A stretch of DNA of 42,974 nt from positions 1 through 42,974 of IMG/VR virus record IMGVR_UViG_3300022177_000066; one strand, given 5' to 3'. Shown here piece by piece: positions 2,000 through 39,363 of the stretch. The translations under genes were made by a program, and so were the position numbers. Positions within the stretch are counted from its first letter, which is position 1. The number at the start of each line of letters is the position of its first letter. The notes under the pieces were generated by a model that did no database searches, was not told the DNA's origin, and saw only the letters and a program-made list of their open reading frames with translations. The DNA is from a virus. Lineage: Duplodnaviria; Caudoviricetes.

Positions 2000-2884
2000 C
2001 TATTTTTTAATAATGACTTGCTGTGTTGCCTCGTCCCACTCAATCTTTGCGCCCAGCGCCTCAGCGATGAAGCGCACAGGCACGAAAGTCCGGCTGTCCT
2101 TAATGAAAGGCGCTGTGTCTATCGGCTTTGTTTCGCCGTTGACTTCCATTGTGTCCTTGCCTATAGTCAGTTTTATCTCGTTTTGATATACCATTTCCGG
2201 CATCATCAAGACCCCCCATCCGCTTTTTTCATCCTTGCCATTATTAAGTATGTCCATACTGTTTTCCTTGATGAATTCCTTGAAGCCCTCCGGCGTGATT
2301 CTGTGGCTCTCCTTGAGAAGTGCCGCCATTCCCGCGGGAACCTGCACGGCTCCCGATGTGTGCGTAAGCGGTATGTACGTGCCCGACTTTGTGAGACTAT
2401 CGAGCCCCTCGTAGCAAAGGCCCAGCATCTTGCTGCCGTAGCTTGAGTAGTTTGCCTTGCCGTCTACGAACCTGTCGTATGCGCCTATGGCAATCCAACT
2501 TGGGTCCATGGCCGGGTAGGCGTCTATCTCCTTGCCTTCGTTGTCTGCCGAGTCAAGCATTATGCAGCCTGAGTCCCTGAGCTCTTTTGAGAGCCTCTGC
2601 AGCTCGCTGTTCCAGTTGCCCTTTCTAAGGGAGCAGCACACAACGTCCGCACCCATGTCCAGGCACTCCTGGAATGCCGCTTCGAAGCTCATGCCGCCCT
2701 TCATGACATTGAGCTCGACTATCTCACAGCCCGGGGCGACTTCCTTTATTATGCTGGCCCCGTTGTGGTGGGCGCCCTTTTCGAAGCCTATTATGGCCAC
2801 AAGCACGTCTTTGCCGGTGTAACCCAGGTCTTGCCACTTTGTGATATTGAGCCTGTCATACACATTCTTATTCTTGTTCGTCAT
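2000..2884 (-). CDS. Divergent S8 (subtilisin-like) peptidase fused to a copper-amine-oxidase N-terminal (stalk) domain
   Basis: GYTGKDVLVAII, VAPG, SADN, YPA, YSSYG, HTSGA..AGMAALL and GWG motifs; C-terminal APFIKDSRTFVPVRFIAEALGAKIEWD. Confidence 0.75.
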   Translation of the reverse strand: MTNKNKNVYDRLNITKWQDLGYTGKDVLVAIIGFEKGAHHNGASIIKEVAPGCEIVELNVMKGGMSFEAAFQECLDMGADVVCCSLRKGNWNSELQRLSKELRDSGCIMLDSADNEGKEIDAYPAMDPSWIAIGAYDRFVDGKANYSSYGSKMLGLCYEGLDSLTKSGTYIPLTHTSGAVQVPAGMAALLKESHRITPEGFKEFIKENSMDILNNGKDEKSGWGVLMMPEMVYQNEIKLTIGKDTMEVNGETKPIDTAPFIKDSRTFVPVRFIAEALGAKIEWDEATQQVIIKK

Positions 2885-9290: not shown

Positions 9291-12200
9291 CTACACCCCC
9301 CACTGCATTGCAAGGCTTCTTGTCAGTTTCTCTTGCTCCATTCTTATCTTCACGGCATCGAGAGCCTCTGGGCTGTTGAAAGTATTCTGCATTGTCACCG
9401 AAGGCTTAGAGGCCTTTGATATGGCCTGCGCAAGCTTGCCGTAGTCCAAGTTGAAAGTATTTGTTATTTTCTGTTCTACTGCTTGCGGTGCGAATTGGAT
9501 TGACCTTGCAAGGTTTGCGACCATGTCGAATATGCTGTTTGTTTCTGAGTTGCTGGCCACCTTTTCTCCGCCGTTGAACCACATAAGCTCCGGCCCCTCT
9601 TCTCCTACGAGGTGCCATCCTGGGGTAGCGGAAAGAGTGCCGCTTGCGTAGCCGTCTGGCATGCCATTAGCTTTGTCCCTGGCTCTTCTTGCTTCTTTTT
9701 CAGCTTTATCCTCTGCTGAGCCGGTAGCTGGTTTGTTACTACCACCGCCTCCACCACCGCCTCCGCTTTTGTATATCTCTTGGCCTAGCGAGTTCTTGCC
9801 CTGATAGATACTGCCGTCTGACATAACCTGCCCAACATACTTGTATGCATTGGCCAGGCTTCCAAGCGAACCCGATGTCTTGTCAATTTCGCCTTGAAGT
9901 TTTGCCTGCTCTATCTGCAAGTCAAGCAATTGGTTCTTGTAGTTCAGCGCCTCGCTAGAGGTCTCGCCGTATTTGGCAATTATTTGCGAAAGGGCCTTTT
10001 CTGTGTTGGCAATCTCTATTGAAAGTGCCTTGTGCTGCTGCTCCTGCACCTCCATTTGCTTTGCAAGGTCTTCCGAGCTGCCCTCGAGCGACTTGTTTTG
10101 AATCCTCCATAGCTCGTATTGCTTTTGGATTATAGACACAGTGCTTTGCACGTATCCGTTGACCTTGCTTAGAGCTTCGCCTATCTTGCTGGCCAGCTCC
10201 TCCGATTTGCCGGATACAGCTGCCTTCGTGTAGTCCATTCCAAGTACGAGGCCTTCACCTACAAACTGGCCTATCTCTGTCGTAACCTTCGATGGAGATT
10301 GAATGTTGAGGACCTTCTTAAGCCATGCAGGAATGCTTTCCGCAAGCTCTGACACCTTGCCTTTTACAGCACTGATTTTATTCTGTATGCCGTCTATAAT
10401 GCCTTGCACAATATCCTTGCCCGCCTGGAGCATTTGCGGTACCCCGCCTTTTATTGCCGATACAAGCTGCTTTATTATCTCTCTGCCAGTTGCTATTATT
10501 GCGACACCGGCAAAAGCCAGCGCATATTTGAAGCCGTTGACGATTATTTTGCCCAGGTTGTCCATGAAGGCTTGCTTTTGCTCTTCGGTTCCCTTGGTAG
10601 CCGTCTGGATCATGTTTTTGCCTGAATCCTTAATTTCTTGTTTAGAGCCAAGCCCCTTGAAGAAGTTAATAAAAGAATTTCCCCAGCCTTTTAACGATTC
10701 AGTTATCTTTGAAGGCACACTAGATAGGTCGGTTAGGAATGTCTTCTTCATTTCGTCAAACTTATCCTTTCCTGCCTCTTTCATCTTGGTATAGCCATCG
10801 GATACTGCTTTCTTCCAGTCGCTGAACTTATCAGCCATCTCCTTGGGGATGCCCTTGAACCAATCGGTTATCGTCTTTCCCCACTTAGCAAATTGCCTTT
10901 TGTTTTCCTCGTTTTGGCTCTTAGTCCATGAAGCTATAGCCGTTCCCCACTCGGCCATTTTCGATTTAATAGTTGCAGGGATTCCGGCAAACCAGCTTGC
11001 GATAGCCGTTTTCCATTCATCAAGCTTTTGTGATATGGAAGCTTTTATTTCAGTCAGTTTGCTGGCGATAGCCTCCTTCCATTGCGGAACCTTGTCGGAA
11101 ATGAGTATTTTCAACCCATCCAGTGCAGTTGAGAATATCCTCTTTATTCCCTCCCAAAGGTTAGCAAATACTGTCTTGAGTACTTCCGTTCCAAGATTGA
11201 AAGCGGCTTTAATGCTCTCCCAACCAGCTTTAAATACTGACTTAAGATTTCCCCATCCGTTTGAAACCAAGGTCTTAACAGCAGACCACAATGTTCCCCA
11301 GTCTCCTGAGAAAGCAGCCTTAAAAACATTGAATATGTCCTTGATGGACTGCATTCCCGCCGTAAAAACAGTTTTTATGAAGTCGACAGAAACATGAACT
11401 GAGTTTTTAACACGTTCCCAAACATTAGCAACTCCGTCTCTGAACGTCTCACTGTTTTGGTACAGCAGATATAAAGCCGCACCCACAGCCGCCAATGGAG
11501 CCAATACACTTGCGGCGAATGTTATTACCGAACCAATTGCAGTACCTACTGCCGCTATTGGAGCTACCGCTGCCGTGGCTGCCGCACCTACTGCTGTCGT
11601 CGCAGGAGCCGCTACCGTGAAAAGTCCTATAATAGAACCTATGGCGCTTGACAGTGCTCCTAGTATCATCAATACAGGCCCTATCGCCGCTACTATGCCG
11701 GCTATTGTCACTATTGTCTTTTTAGTCCCTTCGTCAAGCTCTCCAAACCACTTAAGCGTTTCGTTGAGCTTTTGAACTATCGGCGTAAACACCGGGAGCA
11801 GATGCTGTCCAAAGCTTGCCCCGAGCTCCTTTAGCGATTCCTGGAATATACGCATCTGGTTCGCAGTGCCGTCTGAAGTTCTGGCGAAGTCTCCATGAGC
11901 GTTTTTAGTCACGTCCATGACGTATGCATACCTGAGTGCTACAAGCTCACCTTGCGTCATTTCTTTGATTGGCTTTTGAATTCCTTGTGCTAAAGCAAAG
12001 GCCTCGAGATTGCTCTGATTCATAACAATGCCTAAACCCTTAAGTGCTTCAGTTTCGCCTGTATACACACCTGCAAGCGCCGTCTGTGCTCTGTCTAAGC
12101 TGATATTCTTGAAAGAAGCCATGTCCCCGGCTAGTCCAACAAGTGACATGGACATGTCAGCCGCTTTATCTGTAGGCAGTCCCATGCTCACTGCCATATC

Positions 12201-12572
12201 TCCAAAAAGTGCACTCATATCAAGTGCCGTCCCTTGCGCTATGCCTGAAGCCTCCAGCGTCTTTTGTGACCACGCTTCAACTTCGCTTGCACTCTCATCG
12301 AAAACTTCATTGACCTTGTTCAGTGACTCGTTGAAATCACTTGCAAGCTTTATTCCGGCTGCGCCTGCCGCCAATATGGGAACCGTAAATCCAACAGCCA
12401 TGGTAGCGCCCACAGTTTTAAGCGAACTGCCTAACCCTGTGAGCTTGTCCCCAAGACTTGCACTCTGACTTTCAAGCACTCCGAGTTGCATACCTGCGGT
12501 CTTGAGCGCCGAGCTATATTTACTTGTATCCATATCGAGATACGCAACTACCGTACCTGCGTCTATTGACAT
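9291..12572 (-). CDS. Tail tape measure protein
   Basis: 1093 aa, Ala/Gly-rich helical, periodic Trp/Phe repeats, IQSPSKV and YASGT..VGEEGPEL motifs. Confidence 0.92.
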   Translation of the reverse strand: MSIDAGTVVAYLDMDTSKYSSALKTAGMQLGVLESQSASLGDKLTGLGSSLKTVGATMAVGFTVPILAAGAAGIKLASDFNESLNKVNEVFDESASEVEAWSQKTLEASGIAQGTALDMSALFGDMAVSMGLPTDKAADMSMSLVGLAGDMASFKNISLDRAQTALAGVYTGETEALKGLGIVMNQSNLEAFALAQGIQKPIKEMTQGELVALRYAYVMDVTKNAHGDFARTSDGTANQMRIFQESLKELGASFGQHLLPVFTPIVQKLNETLKWFGELDEGTKKTIVTIAGIVAAIGPVLMILGALSSAIGSIIGLFTVAAPATTAVGAAATAAVAPIAAVGTAIGSVITFAASVLAPLAAVGAALYLLYQNSETFRDGVANVWERVKNSVHVSVDFIKTVFTAGMQSIKDIFNVFKAAFSGDWGTLWSAVKTLVSNGWGNLKSVFKAGWESIKAAFNLGTEVLKTVFANLWEGIKRIFSTALDGLKILISDKVPQWKEAIASKLTEIKASISQKLDEWKTAIASWFAGIPATIKSKMAEWGTAIASWTKSQNEENKRQFAKWGKTITDWFKGIPKEMADKFSDWKKAVSDGYTKMKEAGKDKFDEMKKTFLTDLSSVPSKITESLKGWGNSFINFFKGLGSKQEIKDSGKNMIQTATKGTEEQKQAFMDNLGKIIVNGFKYALAFAGVAIIATGREIIKQLVSAIKGGVPQMLQAGKDIVQGIIDGIQNKISAVKGKVSELAESIPAWLKKVLNIQSPSKVTTEIGQFVGEGLVLGMDYTKAAVSGKSEELASKIGEALSKVNGYVQSTVSIIQKQYELWRIQNKSLEGSSEDLAKQMEVQEQQHKALSIEIANTEKALSQIIAKYGETSSEALNYKNQLLDLQIEQAKLQGEIDKTSGSLGSLANAYKYVGQVMSDGSIYQGKNSLGQEIYKSGGGGGGGGSNKPATGSAEDKAEKEARRARDKANGMPDGYASGTLSATPGWHLVGEEGPELMWFNGGEKVASNSETNSIFDMVANLARSIQFAPQAVEQKITNTFNLDYGKLAQAISKASKPSVTMQNTFNSPEALDAVKIRMEQEKLTRSLAMQWGV

Positions 12573-12655
12573 TTATTCACCTCCTATTAAGGCATTTCAA
12601 TCATTCTAGCCATTATTTCTACGGCGGCCTTATTTTCACCATATCTTCACCCCAC

Positions 12656-12679
12656 AAAAAAGACGCTCAAATGAGCGTC
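12656..12679 (-). terminator. Intrinsic terminator closing the inserted antirepressor cassette
   Basis: GACGCTCA-tt-TGAGCGTC followed by TTTTTT on the minus strand. Confidence 0.8.
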
Positions 12680-12689
12680 CTAAGATATT

Positions 12690-12974
12690 TTACTTTGTCA
12701 TTGTAAGTATATTTTTCATTTCCATTCCGTCAGCGATACCTTTTTGATACATTATTGTCTGCATAAGAGCATCCAGCGAACCCACAACGCTATCAAATTC
12801 AGTTAACACTGTTCTTTCTTCTGCAGGCATTTTTGCGCTTATATCTTCAAACAACTGCATGAATTTTTTGTTTAACTTAGAATATTCTTCATTATTACTA
12901 AGCAAGGCTCCTAATTCCTCTGTTCGCTTCATCATAAATCCTTCGAAACTGCTTTTGAAATCGATGCCTAACAT
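12690..12974 (-). CDS. Hypothetical helical protein coupled to the antirepressor
   Basis: 94 aa, overlaps the upstream stop; YQKGIADG motif typical of small clostridial mobile-element proteins. Confidence 0.7.
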   Translation of the reverse strand: MLGIDFKSSFEGFMMKRTEELGALLSNNEEYSKLNKKFMQLFEDISAKMPAEERTVLTEFDSVVGSLDALMQTIMYQKGIADGMEMKNILTMTK

Positions 12975-13891
12975 GATGCCACCGCCTTTTCTCCATACAC
13001 TACATAATATTTTCTGTCCTTGCCTGTGGATGTAGTATAGTCAATAACGGTAGGATATCCATTTTCAAAGAGCCATGTTTTGGCCCTCTCTATGACTGGC
13101 TCTGCGTATTTTATTACCGTCCCCTGCCAGCTACCTGAAGATTCCCAAACGGCTTGCTGTTCGTCTTCAGGTACATCTATCATTTTCAAGATTTCCGAAA
13201 TAGCATTGAACGCTGGCTTGCCGTTATTTGTGAACATATTAAGCCTTGCGGCTATCTGTTTTGTATCATAGAATCTGACTTGCGCTTCTACCTCTATAGG
13301 CAGTTCAATGCCCGCCTTGCGGAATATTGTCTTTGCTGTAAGTAGTTTGACTTTACTATCTATACCCACACTATCCATAAGGCCATTTAGCATCTGTGTG
13401 CTTTCTTGGGCTATTCTAAGGCCTTCCAGTTCATCAGCTTTACTGCGGAGCATTTCGGGGCTTGCCTTTTCAGTTATGAAAGCACCTGTTTTATTGACTT
13501 CCTCTTTAACTTCAAAGTATTCATCGAGAAGTTGGTCATACCTATCCCACGACAAATCATCATCGAATATTTTTATTAGTTTTGCATATCCTCTTTCTGA
13601 AAATAAATACACATTTTTTGAAGCGTTCAGAGAACCTCGTGTAAATATTCCGCTATCCTTCAGAAGGATAGCAAACTTATCTCCCTTCAAGTCTATCAAG
13701 TCGACATTTTCCTTAAATCTTTTTATGTTATTATTTATCAATTCATTGACTTTGTACAACGTTTTGTTATGAAGTGTGGCAATATCTTTTGCCAGCATCG
13801 CTCTCTTGCCTTCACCAAATCCGCCCGCTATGCAGGGTATTTCCACACCACATACTGTAGTAGTGCCTTTTAGCATAAGTTCATTTTTCAT
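12968..13891 (-). CDS. ORF6N-domain antirepressor-like protein
   Basis: GGFGEGKRAMLAKDIA.LH..VNELINNN..RF...DLIDLK and VYLFSERGYAKLIKI. Confidence 0.85.
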   Translation of the reverse strand: MKNELMLKGTTTVCGVEIPCIAGGFGEGKRAMLAKDIATLHNKTLYKVNELINNNIKRFKENVDLIDLKGDKFAILLKDSGIFTRGSLNASKNVYLFSERGYAKLIKIFDDDLSWDRYDQLLDEYFEVKEEVNKTGAFITEKASPEMLRSKADELEGLRIAQESTQMLNGLMDSVGIDSKVKLLTAKTIFRKAGIELPIEVEAQVRFYDTKQIAARLNMFTNNGKPAFNAISEILKMIDVPEDEQQAVWESSGSWQGTVIKYAEPVIERAKTWLFENGYPTVIDYTTSTGKDRKYYVVYGEKAVASC

Positions 13892-13919
13892 GTTCTGTTC
13901 CTCCTTGGTTTATTAGAAT

Positions 13920-13949
13920 TTGACTAAATACACCAAAGCAGGATATAAT
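13920..13949 (+). promoter_or_regulatory. Sigma-A promoter for a small antisense RNA
   Basis: TTGACT-18bp-TATAAT pointing away from any + strand ORF. Confidence 0.75.
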
Positions 13950-13953
13950 ATAA

Positions 13954-14022
13954 GTGTCTAGGTTATATCATAGTCTGCTTTGGTAGACACGCCTGTTATC
14001 CTTCTGGGTAACAGGTTTTTTA
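13954..14022 (+). ncRNA. Putative ~65 nt antisense RNA to the antirepressor leader
   Basis: Promoter, then hairpin GTGTCTA/TAGACAC with 23-nt loop, then terminator CCTGTTATC-cttct-GGGTAACAGG plus T-run. Confidence 0.65.
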
Positions 14023-14220
14023 GTTTTTTCTAAAATATTCAATCGGCTTACCTAATCCTTTTGCTATCTTTGCAAGAGTGTCAATTCTTGCTTCTGTTTC
14101 TCCTTTCTCGATTCTTGATATTGTAGACCTCCCTACGCCTGATCTTTTTGATAGTTCATCAATTGTTAATCCTTGCCTCGCTCTTTCAAGCAACATTTTC
14201 TCGTTATCAACCCTAAACAA
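14020..14220 (-). CDS. Cro-like XRE HTH regulator (second switch)
   Basis: 66 aa; RARQGLTIDELSKRSGVGRSTISRIEKG. Confidence 0.9.
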   Translation of the reverse strand: MFRVDNEKMLLERARQGLTIDELSKRSGVGRSTISRIEKGETEARIDTLAKIAKGLGKPIEYFRKN

Positions 14221-14253
14221 ATTGTCAACTCCTCTCTATTTTCGCAAATTTAT

Positions 14254-14306
14254 GTTCGTTTCACGAACTTTAATTTCATTTTAGTTCATTTATGCAACAT
14301 TGTCAA
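14254..14306. promoter_or_regulatory. Leftward promoter and palindromic operators of second switch
   Basis: Minus TTGACA-17-TAAAAT (14306-14278); palindromes GTTCGT-ttc-ACGAAC (14254-14268) and GTTCATTTATGCAAC (14284-14298). Confidence 0.7.
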
Positions 14307-14363
14307 TGTTTATATTTTAGTTTTGTTCGTCATATACTACAATTAAACAAAGGGGTGTTGCTT

Positions 14364-15245
14364 ATGACTTTTGGCGAAATATTGAAACGACTGAGGAATA
14401 TAAATAAAATAACCCAATCAGAATTTGCTCAAGTTTTAAATAAAAGCAGATCTACAATAGCAGGCTATGAAATTAATGACAGGCTTCCAGACCAAGAAAC
14501 CATGCTGAAAATCTCTGAGTGTTTTGGTGTTTCATTAGAAAATCTAATCAAAATTTCAGAAAATGACACTAGCATATTGGAGCATCTAGGTGGATATATT
14601 AATGGTAAAATTTCTGATTCTTATACAATTGTAAAATCAGTTAGTGAATTATCTAATTTAACAAATATACCCTTGGATACTCTTAACAAAATCATTGATG
14701 GTTCCGAAATCCCGACTCGTGAGCAAATAAAGCTAATTGCGATTTTCGGACCATTTAAGTACATAGACTTACTTGCAAATAGCATATATGGGCTTAAGGA
14801 GCATTACTCCACACTGCATAATATAAAGAACAAATCAGCTAGCGATTACTTGAGAATAGGCTTGGTTGATGCTATGAATTTTTACCCAACATATTTTTAT
14901 CAGTATTTAATAAATTTCTATAATCAAACTAATTTTTTTGACAAGAATAGTGATTATTTTGATTTAGTCGATAGTTTCGCGTTAGAAACTTTACATTATT
15001 ACTCATTAGAAGACAATGAAGCCGTTATCAAAAATATGGGATTTAGTGCTATAAACATAGAATCCGGATTTATTATTGTTCCCAGTGAATATTTAGAAGA
15101 ATACATACTTAGAGTTTTTAACAGAAATCATGAAATTGGAGAACAACACTTTATTAATTTAGAAAATCTGCCTAATGAAGCAATCCTTGAAATTGAAAAT
15201 TTCGTAGAATATATACGCCAAAAATACAGAAAGACCACTGAGTAG
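14364..15245 (+). CDS. XRE-family repressor-like protein with second HTH and unknown C-terminal domain
   Basis: MTFGEILKRLR..ITQSEFAQVLNKSRSTIAGYE; second HTH SVSELSNLTNIPLDTLNKIIDG; start behind AGGGGTG; AT-rich. Confidence 0.8.
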   Translation: MTFGEILKRLRNINKITQSEFAQVLNKSRSTIAGYEINDRLPDQETMLKISECFGVSLENLIKISENDTSILEHLGGYINGKISDSYTIVKSVSELSNLTNIPLDTLNKIIDGSEIPTREQIKLIAIFGPFKYIDLLANSIYGLKEHYSTLHNIKNKSASDYLRIGLVDAMNFYPTYFYQYLINFYNQTNFFDKNSDYFDLVDSFALETLHYYSLEDNEAVIKNMGFSAINIESGFIIVPSEYLEEYILRVFNRNHEIGEQHFINLENLPNEAILEIENFVEYIRQKYRKTTE

Positions 15246-15262
15246 GGGTCTTTTCTGTATTT
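15222..15262. terminator. Bidirectional terminator at the right edge of the cassette
   Basis: AAATACAGAAAGACC / GGTCTTTTCTGTATTT inverted repeat between convergent genes. Confidence 0.75.
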
Positions 15263-15268
15263 ATGCCA

Positions 15269-15535
15269 CTAGGGTCCCTGCATCCATTTGATTGTATCTT
15301 TGTTGTTTTGAGCATTTGCCTCATCTGCCCAAGTTGGCGTGTTTACGAAATTTCCTTCTTTGTCTCGCTCCTCAAGCATTTGCTGAATGTAGAAACACGC
15401 CTCATCAAAGCAAAAAGCCGTGTATTCATCCTCTATTCGAAGAATCCTACTCGGCTTTTCCCTGTACATCTTGCTTTGATTCAGTATCCTCACTATCTGC
15501 TTGCTTTGGACGAAACCTTTCAAGCCCCTTAGCAC
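15269..15535 (-). CDS. Tail assembly chaperone frameshift extension (gpT-like)
   Basis: Overlaps the chaperone 3' end in the +1 frame, weak independent start; PSRILRIEDEYTAFCFDEAC motif. Confidence 0.65.
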   Translation of the reverse strand: MLRGLKGFVQSKQIVRILNQSKMYREKPSRILRIEDEYTAFCFDEACFYIQQMLEERDKEGNFVNTPTWADEANAQNNKDTIKWMQGP

Positions 15536-15884
15536 CTGCCTGCGTATAGCTTATTATGGCCATAAGTTGCTCGTCCGTCAGCTCTAAGCCTGCTTCCTCT
15601 ATTTGCTCCACAGTTGGCTCTGCAAGTGATTCCTCGGCTATGATTCTCGCTATGCTGTACACTTCTTTGATGTCTACATCGCCGCTTACGCCCTTGCTGA
15701 ATACTTTCTGTGCGCTTCCCAGCATTGAGTTAGGTATCTTGCCTTTTGACGCGAGACCTAGCAGAGAAGGCCTTTTGAGTCTTGCTATGAACGGTTCATC
15801 GTCCCACCCAGGAATCTCCGTCATCTGACCCTGGGCCTTCTTTTTAAGTTCGCCTAAACTAGTTATTTTAAGTCCTGTACTCAT
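15447..15884 (-). CDS. Tail assembly chaperone (gpG-like)
   Basis: Between major tail and tape measure genes; RLKRPSLLGLASKGKIPNSMLG, LTDEQLMAI. Confidence 0.75.
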   Translation of the reverse strand: MSTGLKITSLGELKKKAQGQMTEIPGWDDEPFIARLKRPSLLGLASKGKIPNSMLGSAQKVFSKGVSGDVDIKEVYSIARIIAEESLAEPTVEQIEEAGLELTDEQLMAIISYTQAGAKGLERFRPKQADSEDTESKQDVQGKAE

Positions 15885-15900
15885 ATATTAGTTCCTCCTA

Positions 15901-16470
15901 TTATGCTGGTAGCGTGTCTAAAAAGTCGATTGTTACTGGCTTTTCATTCTTTTTCGCTCTTGACTCCATAGCGAGTTTTGAAGCTGTGAATTTACCATCT
16001 TCAAACTGATAATCAACCGGCTTTCCTTTGCAATGCTTGAATGCGAACTGCGCATATCCGAGCACTTCGCCATCTGTATCCTTTTCCTCTGTGAAAATAT
16101 TCAATGTGAATGGAGTCCTCGATACCGCTACTCCTTGAGTTGGAGCCTCGTATTTTGTCACTTTAGTCGTTTCTACGGGATCGAATGTAAGTGTTCCTCC
16201 GTCTATCAAGGCAAAAAGTTCCGGCACCATAACAGCCGACTCAAGGTCCAAGTCATAACCCACAACTATGTCCTCTGTCCTATCGAGTCCAAGTATCTGG
16301 TTCTTAACTCTGAGTATCTCCTCTTTCCCCTGAGATATCTTGGGCTTGGCATTAGCCTTGTCGCTTGTACCCATTCTATATGTCTTTGGCGTGGTTTCCT
16401 CTGTAATAACTTCCACCCTTACCACATTGACAAGGGGTTTTCCTGTCAAATTTATTGCAGCCATCGGCAT
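15901..16470 (-). CDS. Major tail (tube) protein
   Basis: 189 aa beta-rich; position after the tail-completion genes. Confidence 0.7.
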   Translation of the reverse strand: MPMAAINLTGKPLVNVVRVEVITEETTPKTYRMGTSDKANAKPKISQGKEEILRVKNQILGLDRTEDIVVGYDLDLESAVMVPELFALIDGGTLTFDPVETTKVTKYEAPTQGVAVSRTPFTLNIFTEEKDTDGEVLGYAQFAFKHCKGKPVDYQFEDGKFTASKLAMESRAKKNEKPVTIDFLDTLPA

Positions 16471-16476
16471 TACCTC

Positions 16477-16818
16477 CTATATTTTCTTGAGTATTTGATA
16501 TTGCAGGCTAGTAGTGTGCGCCTGCTTCTCCTCTTCCATCATCACGGGCGTTTCGTAGCCTGTGAATCTTGCCTCGGATATTTCCTTCATGGCGCTGCGG
16601 ATGCTTTTCACATAATCGCCCAGCGTGCTATATTTACCTGCGGGATGATATATTATTACATCCATAAGCGCATAGCCTACTTGATTTGTACCTGCAAAAG
16701 CATTGGCACCTGAGTCTTTAAGAACTACATAAGAACTTGTGCAAAGCCCTGTATGCTGTCCTGGCGAAAACACCGCAAAGCCTTTATCCTTGAGATGCAA
16801 ATATATCTTCTTCCACAT
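16477..16818 (-). CDS. Putative tail terminator / completion protein
   Basis: Synteny; VFSPGQHTGLCTSSYVVLK. Confidence 0.55.
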   Translation of the reverse strand: MWKKIYLHLKDKGFAVFSPGQHTGLCTSSYVVLKDSGANAFAGTNQVGYALMDVIIYHPAGKYSTLGDYVKSIRSAMKEISEARFTGYETPVMMEEEKQAHTTSLQYQILKKI

Positions 16819-16826
16819 GTTGCCAC

Positions 16827-17171
16827 CTACTTTTCAAGTATCTTGTGCATGCCTTCGAGCATCTTCTTGCTGTTGGCATGTATTACAGGAAATATCACGG
16901 CGTATTTCTTTTCATGGGCAAATTCGAGGTATTTAAAATAGTCCACATTGCCCGAGAGATACACTCTGCACTTTGCACCTTGCCATTCCATACCGCCCTG
17001 CATCGTCGGCCTCGCCAAGGGGGTTCTGTCTTTCCATGGAGCAATTTTCTTTGCTTCCCTCTCCAGCTTTTTGCCTGCGGTATCACAATACACGCCTACA
17101 GCAGCCTTCATCTTGATGTCAGCTTCTCCAAGCCCTTTGAGTAGGCCTGATGTGTCGAGTTTTAATCCCAT
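16827..17171 (-). CDS. HK97 gp10-like tail completion protein
   Basis: AKKIAPWKDRT..AR, VDYFKYLEFAHEKKYAVI. Confidence 0.7.
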   Translation of the reverse strand: MGLKLDTSGLLKGLGEADIKMKAAVGVYCDTAGKKLEREAKKIAPWKDRTPLARPTMQGGMEWQGAKCRVYLSGNVDYFKYLEFAHEKKYAVIFPVIHANSKKMLEGMHKILEK

Positions 17172-37557: not shown

Positions 37558-37824
37558 TTAATTCCTCCCTATGTTGTACTTGTTTTCAATAAGCCTTTCG
37601 ATTTCATTGTCTACTAGCTTGAACAGCAACCCTTCCTTTGATTCGCCCATTGCTCTGGCTTTGTTGATTATGGCTTGCACTTCGCCCGTAGGCATTGGTG
37701 GGTCACTGAGGAAGCTGAGGTCGAATAAGTAATTGAACTCCTCTGACGCTTGAAAACAAAACTCTAGTTCTCCATTACTCCTTATAAATTCAGCCAGTTT
37801 CTTGATTTCTTGTTTAGTTAGCAT
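37558..37824 (-). CDS. Hypothetical protein
   Basis: RBS AGGAGGG; overlaps the antirepressor stop. Confidence 0.65.
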   Translation of the reverse strand: MLTKQEIKKLAEFIRSNGELEFCFQASEEFNYLFDLSFLSDPPMPTGEVQAIINKARAMGESKEGLLFKLVDNEIERLIENKYNIGRN

Positions 37825-38572
37825 CGAGCCCTCCTATAAGCAACCTAAATGTCTCCCTTCCCTTCGGCGTTATGAGTGTTTGCACTCCAGCCCATTTAGT
37901 CTTTTCGTTAATGCATTCCTTCAAGTCAAAAAGTCCGTTGTTTTTATCCGCATAAGGCATTAGCTTACCCTTCTTATCTCTAAAAACATATTTCCGCTCT
38001 ATTAAAAATCCTATGAACTCACTCTCTTTTACCTTTAGGGCTTTTGCTGTTTCCCTAAAGTTGGTAAGAAGGTTTCTATCTACCAATTCGTCAAAATAGT
38101 CTGCCTTAGGCTGCATTATTTGATTGCTAACTTTTAGGTGTGAGTTTTCAGCTTGCAAGTGCAGGTTTTTCATTTTTTCTTCTTTCAGCGTTGTTGCAAG
38201 TTGGATTAAAACATCTGGATTCAAAAGAGCTTCCTCAATTTTTTGTTGCGTCATATATGCCCCATGCTTACGGATTGTCGGAAGCACATCGTCAAAAACC
38301 CACCGCTCGAATTTTTCTGCCGAAGGAAGTTTTGACTTAACTATCAATCGATATAAATCACCCTCGGGGATAAAATTGATTTCTTGCTTACCGCCACCCG
38401 TAAGGACCTCGTGTTTCACGACCCCCTTCGCATGCCTATTGATAGCATCATGCGGATTCGAGTACCCAAGCATAACAGCGCACTCGGTAGCTGGAAAATA
38501 TTCTTTTTCGCTTACAATCAGAATTCCCAACTCTCCAAATTCTGAATTTCGAAATATCTGCAAATTATTCAT
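37814..38572 (-). CDS. Phage antirepressor, Bro-N plus KilAC (ANT) domains
   Basis: LQIFRNSEFG, LGYSNP, IPEGDLYRLI..SKLPSAEKFERWV..VLPTIRKHGAY, PKADYFD, QTLITPKG. Confidence 0.92.
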   Translation of the reverse strand: MNNLQIFRNSEFGELGILIVSEKEYFPATECAVMLGYSNPHDAINRHAKGVVKHEVLTGGGKQEINFIPEGDLYRLIVKSKLPSAEKFERWVFDDVLPTIRKHGAYMTQQKIEEALLNPDVLIQLATTLKEEKMKNLHLQAENSHLKVSNQIMQPKADYFDELVDRNLLTNFRETAKALKVKESEFIGFLIERKYVFRDKKGKLMPYADKNNGLFDLKECINEKTKWAGVQTLITPKGRETFRLLIGGLDAN

Positions 38573-38598
38573 GTTTAACCGCCTTTCTGGGTATAAAT

Positions 38599-38823
38599 TT
38601 AATGTAACTCAGAATCACTCAACATTTCGTTGTTTGTTTCATCAAAAAAAATTTCATCCACAGTGACTTCAAGGATATCGGCTATTTTTTTTGCAAGTTT
38701 AAACCCTGGATTTCTCGCTCCGGTTTCAATCATAGAATAGTAATTCTTATTAATCCCAAGCAATTCAGAGAATTCTTGTTGGTTGTAGCCTTTTTTAATT
38801 CTTGCGATTTTTAGATTAATCAT
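38599..38823 (-). CDS. Cro-like XRE regulator
   Basis: NLKIARIKKGYNQQEFSELLGINKNYYSMIETGARNP; divergent from CI. Confidence 0.9.
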   Translation of the reverse strand: MINLKIARIKKGYNQQEFSELLGINKNYYSMIETGARNPGFKLAKKIADILEVTVDEIFFDETNNEMLSDSELH

Positions 38824-38842
38824 TTTTTCACCGCCTTTCAAT

Positions 38843-38967
38843 TAACGTTTTGTTGTTTCTGTATCTAAAGTATATCTAACGTTTCGTTGTTTGTCAATCA
38901 ATTTGTTGAAAATAATTAACTTTTTGTTGGGTTATGTTTAAAAGGAGATAACGATATGTTACAATTA
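38843..38967. promoter_or_regulatory. Main lysis/lysogeny switch: leftward promoter and AAC-N5-GTT operators
   Basis: Minus TTGACA-17-TATACT (38897-38869); operators at 38844, 38878, 38918 and 38950, plus a distal copy at 38621. Confidence 0.8.
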
Positions 38968-39363
38968 CAAGTAAAACCAACGATTGGTGGGATGAATTTG
39001 TTTGGAGATAGGCTGAGACAATTAAGAGAAAACAAACAGATGTATCAGAAAGATTTAGCAAAAATACTCGGCGTATCAGCAGGAGCAATCGGGATGTACG
39101 AAACAAATAAAAGGGCCCCCGATTTTGAAACGCTCAACAAAATTGCCGATTACTTCGATGTTACGGTAGATTATTTACTTGGAAGAACTAACGATAAGGA
39201 GATTAAAGTGTACGACAAAGACCAAATACCAGAGAAATTCAAAAATTTAGGGCTTGAGTATATTGAAATTGCAAAAGAATTGGAATTGAGTGATATATCT
39301 GTTGAAGAAATGAAAAAATTTATAGAGCTTATGAAAATAGCTAAAAAGAAAGAGCAGGAATAA
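38956..39363 (+). CDS. CI-like XRE repressor without S24 autopeptidase domain
   Basis: FGDRLRQLRE..YQKDLAKILGVSAGAIGMYE..RAPD..IADYFDVTVDYLLGRT; alternative start 38992. Confidence 0.9.
   Translation: MLQLQVKPTIGGMNLFGDRLRQLRENKQMYQKDLAKILGVSAGAIGMYETNKRAPDFETLNKIADYFDVTVDYLLGRTNDKEIKVYDKDQIPEKFKNLGLEYIEIAKELELSDISVEEMKKFIELMKIAKKKEQE

Follow-up and report, generated by a model that had tools for sequence, protein, structure and literature searches.

Enterobacterial phages control antirepressors by antisense RNA (P22 sar, P1 c4), and sequestration of a ribosome-binding site (RBS) induced by an antisense RNA has a precedent in a staphylococcal plasmid; the locus described here appears to combine both in an apparent clostridial prophage. 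In P22, the immI region carries mnt, arc and ant in that order and is positioned among the late genes, Mnt and Arc are ribbon-helix-helix proteins, and sar pairs over the ant ribosome site. In P1 and P7, c4 RNA arises by processing of a transcript of the same strand, and its pairing sites are short and lie apart from each other. According to the available part of PMC13397905, sar is a short intergenic antisense RNA that lowers Ant translation, and its sequence includes the complement of the start region. In pSK41, the cis-antisense RNA RNAI lies upstream of the RBS and is proposed to induce an RBS-sequestering stem-loop, and in pT181 (RNAI) and pIP501 (RNAIII) the antisense RNA takes an upstream element and the middle element pairs with the downstream one (both in the accessible text of PMC5703833). 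In IS200, the cis-antisense RNA art200 lies across from a structured 5' UTR in which the SD is hidden by the fold, as the available portion of PMC4513863 describes. In Streptococcus pyogenes, dRNA-seq detected four antisense RNAs, 82-89 nt long, ahead of prophage integrases (PMC6431027, in the part available), and PMC3649979, in its accessible text, notes antisense starts within prophage genes of C. difficile but does not name the present site. The accessible part of PMC5737381 holds nothing relevant to the switch. No description of such a switch on a Gram-positive phage antirepressor was found in the literature, with subscription papers and some supplements little covered.

The window, that is the whole stretch of DNA analysed here, is 42,974 nucleotides long and belongs to a temperate phage with a serine recombinase and with head and tail genes on the - strand. 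The closest named ORF6N proteins come from Clostridia (Caminicella, Dethiothermospora, C. botulinum, Vallitalea), which makes a clostridial host likely. A separate cassette at 12690-15245 contains the switch, with 34.9% GC vs about 45% in the flanks, between the tail-tube-side genes and a tape-measure-like gene. As in immI, repressor, small regulator and ant stand together, apart from the main immunity region, in which repressor, cro and a Bro-N-KilAC antirepressor occupy 37814-39363 (37.8-39.4 kb), the main repressor being at 38956-39363. The phage thus has two ant-like genes, the ORF6N gene of the cassette and the Bro-N/KilAC gene of the main region. The cassette comprises the following features.

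12660..12681, - strand: terminator-like stem at the end of the cassette operon, just ahead of the tape-measure-like gene (terminator scan).
12690..12974, - strand: 94-aa gene overlapping the ant stop, with a weak DUF6809 match below cut-off (ORF, domain search).
12968..13891, - strand: gene of a 307-aa ORF6N-domain protein, ant (PF10543; phrog_2011, phrog_4608).
14020..14220, - strand: 66-aa Cro/XRE-like HTH gene, first in the cassette operon (ORF, domain search; RNA-run contig over 14032-14182).
14246..14276, no strand assigned: imperfect inverted repeat, 11/13 matching, with a 5-nt spacer; candidate operator (sequence reading).
14278..14306, - strand: predicted sigma-A-type promoter (11/12) of the cro-ant-DUF6809 transcript (consensus score).
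14364..15245, + strand: divergent HTH_3 repressor-like gene; the ORF opens at 14292 and the start at 14364 is inferred from its SD (ORF, domain search).

The ORF6N protein is a putative antirepressor by its PHROG and family label, and the 94-aa gene is likely translationally coupled to ant. The repeat at 14246-14276 lies around the predicted transcription start of the cassette and is a candidate operator for the cassette repressor. Insertion of the cassette may interrupt late tail transcription. In the surrounding DNA, a 9/12 promoter at 12612-12639 (-) follows the cassette terminator. Two overlapping ORFs of 145 and 88 aa at 15269-15884 (-), after the tail tube gene, are possibly a frameshifted tail-chaperone pair. 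At 2000-2884 (-), a subtilase-family peptidase fused to a copper-amine-oxidase N-terminal domain adjoins an M15 peptidase lysis gene.

Between the cro-like gene and ant, the mRNA leader holds three elements with a promoter and a terminator of the opposite strand embedded among them, and this arrangement is a real feature of the DNA.

13899..13909, - strand: element C, which holds the Shine-Dalgarno sequence (SD, 13905-13899) (sequence, folding).
13932..13943, - strand: element B (anti-SD), which pairs with A or C and lies inside the antisense promoter spacer (sequence, folding).
13944..13972, - strand: inner stem, 13972-13963 with 13953-13944, and 9-nt loop 13962-13954 (folding).
13974..13984, - strand: element A (anti-anti-SD), 5' arm of the outer stem (sequence, folding, L001 comparison).
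13920..13949, + strand: antisense promoter, -35 at 13920-13925 and -10 at 13944-13949 (consensus score; both boxes identical in the related locus L001).
13956..14021, + strand: predicted cis-antisense RNA of ~66 nt, start inferred (promoter, terminator, folding).
13991..14021, + strand: intrinsic-terminator-like stem 13991-14016 and T/U run, which would end the antisense RNA (sequence, folding).

The sequence elements, like the gene order and the conservation pattern, are read directly from the DNA. Reading places A, B and C at 13984-13974, 13943-13932 and 13909-13899, exactly where the initial annotation had them, and the terminator that it had assigned to the sRNA is also present, as a stem with a T run 35-65 nt downstream of the promoter. 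The ATG of the ORF6N gene is at 13891, downstream of C on the - strand. The near-consensus + strand promoter of the annotation (TTGACT at 13920, 18 nt, TATAAT to 13949) scores 11/12 and ties for best among 21 sites in 12000-17000. Of the pairings it had claimed, B:C indeed has 11 pairs with one bulge, and folding confirms that A:B and B:C exclude each other. Its 7-pair register of the inner stem is not preferred; the favoured one has 10 pairs (13972-13963 with 13953-13944), and the 3' arm of this stem is also the antisense -10.

The folds were computed, and they behave as expected of a switch. The A:B hairpin of the - strand has a z of -6.0, and 0 of 200 shuffles fold as well. In the free mRNA, modelled with five different 5' ends, 9.7-10.0 A:B pairs are expected and the SD is 0.67-0.70 unpaired. 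When the region covered by the antisense RNA, or A alone, is held unpaired, 10.6 B:C pairs form and the SD is 0.05 unpaired; a two-strand fold of leader and sRNA gives the full duplex plus B:C directly. Folding with and without the sRNA, as the annotation had proposed, takes the leader from a dominant A:B with a mostly open SD to B:C (SD unpaired 0.70 to 0.05). Of these two computed, mutually exclusive folds, the one formed in the absence of the RNA exposes the RBS and the other closes it. Among leader shuffles that preserve the SD, -10 and -35, 0/300 satisfied strict switch criteria and 7/300 loose ones. Of 52 SD-bearing starts in the window, the ORF6N start alone has an antisense promoter of at least 10/12 and also the top switch score; one other start passes the loose criteria, without a promoter. 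An Rfam search of the window returned no relevant family, with two weak unrelated matches (E 0.35 and 0.73), and blastn of the leader against named phages gave short chance-like matches only.

The initial annotation had the sRNA display the complement of A in a large loop, and this is where folding departs from it. Only an RNA that starts at 13954 or earlier lets the large-loop fold compete; with a start at 13955-13959 the MFE structure has a free 5' tail, a 6-bp hairpin with anti-A and the terminator, and the large loop was rejected as the main form of the sRNA. The antisense RNA of L001 takes the same tail, small hairpin and terminator. Related antisense RNAs of S. pyogenes start 7 nt past the -10 hexamer (start table of PMC6431027, in the part available), which puts the predicted start here at 13956. 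The predicted RNA is then composed of a free 5' tail (13956-13972), a hairpin SL1 (13973-13988, holding anti-A) and the terminator. It starts ~50 nt upstream of the SD and its 3' end falls within the final codon of the cro-like gene upstream, and it is thus predicted to be a short counter-transcribed RNA complementary to the leader and outside the RBS. Because A:B straddles the antisense start, A:B cannot belong to the sRNA.

The shape of the RNA suggests how it would meet its target. The tail is complementary to the A:B loop (-12.8 kcal/mol, 8 pairs), from which loop invasion or capture of nascent A would follow, and the 9-nt loop (13962-13954) is the predicted toehold for the tail. Blocking this loop alone does not flip the fold, so the toehold route would require strand invasion. 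The free 5' tail on the 9-nt loop seems the more likely entry point; a hairpin-loop kiss is possible, since the stem-loops of pSK41 RNAI are needed and its tail is dispensable (PMC5703833, accessible text). Alternatively, the sRNA might block the SD directly: A resembles C, so anti-A also pairs with C, as in a two-site design like P4 CI or P1 c4, and the 5' half of the sRNA pairs with the SD region at -13.9 kcal/mol. The cis target, however, binds at -62.1, the anti-A segment is inside SL1, and cofolding places B, not the sRNA, on C, and we consider direct blocking quite unlikely.

Our modelling suggests that the leader is probably an antisense-RNA-gated translational attenuator, which would silence the putative antirepressor through RBS sequestration. 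The core of the initial annotation, in which the sRNA takes A without overlapping the SD and the freed B hides the SD by pairing with C, gains support as a model from the folding and from the pattern of changes in L001. In the scheme below, we infer transcription, start sites, the toehold and antirepressor activity. The cassette transcript would run through cro, leader, ant and the DUF6809 gene. A would be made before B, so A:B would form by default and leave the SD open (ON). The ~66-nt antisense RNA would take nascent A before B emerges; alternatively, its free 5' tail would settle on the 9-nt A:B loop and then zip down the 5' arm. Released B would pair with C and the SD would be hidden (OFF). 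No U run follows C in the window (in L001, a 4-U run lies in the SD-ATG spacer), so the output would be translation and not termination, and a terminator output for the window B:C was rejected. The divergent HTH repressor would likely control the cassette promoter, with the antisense RNA adding a threshold against leaky or read-through transcripts. In this way the cassette would act as a second immunity region like immI of P22 and likely help to keep the phage dormant.

The conservation of the leader can be judged from L001, the sole independent close homologue found, whose ORF6N protein is 78% identical over residues 1-126 and whose leader also lies within a repressor/cro/ant cassette adjoining tail genes. 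Viral pattern searches for close homologues returned the record of L001 alone, and the sole DNA recovered by a metagenome pattern search was that of the window itself. In 401 genomes of one class, a pattern search matched in 11, with no switch before an ORF among the matches, and a protein search of 301 genomes matched in 19, the best being L407, which has the leader of L001. L407 and L573 share that leader and L432 is the window's own DNA, so none of the three is independent. The L001 cassette (L001:1285-4608) also contains three antirepressor-family genes and an Arc-like gene, and its ORF6N protein is only 134 aa.

MAFFT misaligned A between the window and L001, and pairs were compared anchored on the -10 instead. 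Of the 19 A:B pairs shared by the two, 5 are changed on both sides, 2 on one side and 0 are broken. In B:C, 10/10 shared pairs are kept, 3 via G-U, and the single B change incompatible with C in L001 falls on the bulge; the -10 and -35 boxes are identical. The covariation that the annotation had proposed to look for is present in A:B, with its 5 double changes, and in B:C the pairing is preserved with no double compensation in this comparison. The changes in L001, judged from two sequences only, are those expected of an element under two pairing constraints.

These changes also bear on a reading in which A and B form a DNA inverted repeat serving as a protein operator at the antisense promoter, or in which A:B weakly terminates transcription behind cro; the likeness to C would then be a by-product. 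A:B folds about equally on either strand (-23.0 vs -21.8; in L001 -24.5 vs -27.3), double changes would fit a DNA palindrome also, and a short U-rich stretch follows A:B. An operator, however, would be expected to conserve its sequence, yet the arms differ at 7/19 pairs between the window and L001, and the tract after A:B is U-poor. Moreover, only the mRNA strand preserves the B:C pairing that depends on G-U: in L001, B:C has -12.7 on that strand vs -4.5 on the opposite one, and the B:C region of the window at -15.3 vs -11.9, the latter in a different structure. An operator or terminator role of the repeat is very unlikely in our view.

For expression of the predicted sRNA, the four S. pyogenes antisense RNAs detected by dRNA-seq give indirect support. 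One RNA run has a share of 0.05 and its single contig covers 14032-14182, i.e. cro only, a span that does not bear on the sRNA. Chance, or a decayed structure with no present function, could be argued from this, with no transcript of the sRNA seen in that run, and from the loose switches in the shuffles and at the one other start. It would leave unaccounted for that promoter, terminator and both pairings, A:B and B:C, occur together and that L001, though divergent, retains every one of them, and we regard it as extremely improbable. Among 97 distinct leaders of ORF6N homologues, a strong switch is found in 2 (L001, L405) and a weaker one in L192; the module is not tied to the ORF6N protein, and most relatives do without it.

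Similar layouts were found before other genes. A first pattern, which combined the antisense -10 and -35 with the SD and left pairing free, gave 90 distinct matches. Clean switches number 8 among these: six precede integrase-like genes, and the other two are those of the window and L001. From two further patterns, taken together, came 109 distinct matches; in 29 the downstream gene is integrase-like, and the genes tested downstream of integrase-type leaders were tyrosine integrases in 5/5 cases. In the alignment of these leaders, 27/28 rows were used and L088 was left out as unrelated. A:B covaries in the 27 leaders, with double changes at 7 pairs, against 0/500 shuffles and 0-1 in slid controls, a count inflated by relatedness, with B partly fixed by the search pattern and mid-A lost in some members. 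The set (alignment A3: L091, L062, L067, L059, L118, L238, L259, L276, L299, L305 and others) is conserved and uncatalogued, and precedes tyrosine integrases of several distinct N-terminal types. Its leaders have an antisense terminator, an A:B hairpin, an embedded promoter and an SD hairpin, and the variants without mid-A have the SD closed by default.

A third pattern, the terminator-loop motif from antirepressor leaders, indicates about 730 IMG/VR stretches of similar layout (estimated from 11/64 parts), including antirepressor genes in the tail region of C. difficile phages. An SD and an ORF are present in 51/90 distinct matches. On blocking, B:SD formed in 37/51 leaders vs 82/204 spacer shuffles vs 11/47 other starts, and clean switches were seen in 15/51 vs 13/204 vs 5/47, respectively; B:SD has a high shuffle background and 22 of the 37 B:SD-forming leaders already form B:SD unblocked. 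Scans of 33/51 downstream proteins assigned 15 to antirepressor or Rha-like families and gave no match for 14, the rest being one integrase, one RecE, one anti-restriction protein and one family of unknown kind. A U run follows B:C in 12/51 leaders of this broad layout and in 18/29 integrase leaders, and such relatives may, by analogy, terminate transcription like pT181.

The layout is common to the window, the integrase leaders and the antirepressor leaders with the CCGACCAAAG terminator: antisense terminator, A, loop, -10, B, -35 and SD follow in the same order. A shared layout of this kind need not mean common descent. The terminator of the window has no CCGACCAAAG-type loop motif, the HMM of the integrase leaders does not match the window leader, and an alignment of 20 sequences of the broad family gave no consensus structure. 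A sequence-only model of this alignment, R1, assigns E 0.04 to L001 and E 1.5 to the window, both driven by promoter and SD. Rfam searches with the integrase and antirepressor leaders likewise returned nothing relevant.

Several further loci show parts of the layout. A 10-nt loop motif is strongly conserved in antisense terminators (L433-L555, L023, L024, L178, L405, L410, L413, L414) that sit before antirepressors and many small genes of no known function, and the scanned loci have no Rfam match; conservation of the loop suggests a recognition or protein-binding role. Weaker versions precede cro-like or small uncharacterised genes in L047, L049, L061, L066 and L102, where the first letters of the antisense RNA form a similar short word, spaced from the -10 just as they are in the window and integrase leaders. 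CRISPR-DR14 arrays lie beside antirepressor genes in the tail-region cassettes of L408, L413 and L023, and in L416 and L417 below-threshold Rfam matches to BsrG (type I toxin-antitoxin) flank the ORF6N gene on both sides.

In lactococci and streptococci, six integrase leaders were examined, of which three have the antisense promoter, terminator and long hairpin. SD access in these three changes little on blocking (0.27 to 0.16, 0.38 to 0.22, and a rise from 0.10 to 0.20), and for this reason they are cousins and not the same switch. The same leaders lend weight to another reading, in which the main effect of the antisense promoter comes from convergent transcription, or from RNase III decay of the cro-ant transcript set off by the duplex, with B:C secondary. 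The near-consensus promoter faces the operon, the perfect 66-nt complementarity would give a long duplex, and convergent transcription is important in pIP501 (PMC5703833, in its accessible part). This reading leaves unexplained why B in L001 stays compatible with both A and C, and why 0/300 shuffles pass the strict criteria; as the main mode of action we consider it rather unlikely, and it is compatible with RBS sequestration and does not exclude it.

RBS sequestration, if true, would account for low translation of antirepressors and integrases in such prophages and would give a function to the antisense RNAs upstream of streptococcal integrases. The unit of ~130 nt is amenable to testing in a single reporter and would be a compact riboregulator for Gram-positive hosts; no Rfam family catalogues the layout of the estimated 730 or so IMG/VR stretches. 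A wider hypothesis, to which we give slightly less than even weight, is that clostridial prophages use a portable, uncatalogued attenuator with an antisense promoter in its switch arms, placed before antirepressors, integrases and some cro-like genes, all of which would have to be silent in a lysogen. In tail-region cassettes it would supply the RNA component of what amounts to a P22 immI of Gram-positive phages. The variable A and loop would define specificity groups, and a resident sRNA might silence in trans the antirepressor of a matching superinfecting phage.

Comparison with known systems places the locus between phage and plasmid precedents. Like P22 immI, the cassette lies among structural genes and joins a divergent repressor, a small DNA-binding gene, an antirepressor and an antisense RNA; unlike P22, both regulators are HTH_3 proteins and the Ant proteins belong to different families. 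Membership in sar was rejected, as the predicted RNA avoids the ant RBS, starting ~50 nt upstream of the SD, and has no Rfam match. P1/P7 c4 (RF01695) similarly applies antisense control to an antirepressor operon via short repeated elements, and membership was rejected with no Rfam match to that model. The antisense RNAs SP119_SR034/071/086/106 of S. pyogenes also have a promoter near the SD of a prophage gene, their own terminator and a long mRNA hairpin; they differ in that the target is an integrase, the promoter straddles the SD and the available part of PMC6431027 proposes no refolding mechanism. The Lacto-int motif is a relative in kind, with an antisense RNA layout before a prophage integrase (PMC2864571, accessible text). 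In IS200, art200 and its mRNA structure act independently (PMC4513863, in the part available), whereas in the window the two would be coupled.

The statement of the initial annotation that the switch is built differently from sar and c4 holds, and it is less unprecedented than implied, given pSK41 RNAI and pT181 (PMC5703833, in the text available). The pT181 and pIP501 systems share its three-element pre-emptor logic, and the pT181 stem contains the RBS; their output is transcription termination, whereas the window lacks the U run after B:C (same source and portion). The annotation had overlooked pSK41 RNAI, as well as the immI-like setting of the cassette and the repeated occurrence of the layout in further prophages. 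Closest in mechanism is this pSK41 RNAI, which has two stem-loops and an unstructured 5' tail of ~18 nt, and which differs in controlling a plasmid replication initiator, in its length of ~83 nt and in a target ~100 nt upstream (PMC5703833, accessible part). The window leader would thus work by a pSK41-like mechanism without being a RepA_N initiator leader: it would act on an ORF6N gene of a phage, and its switch arms themselves incorporate the antisense -10 and -35.
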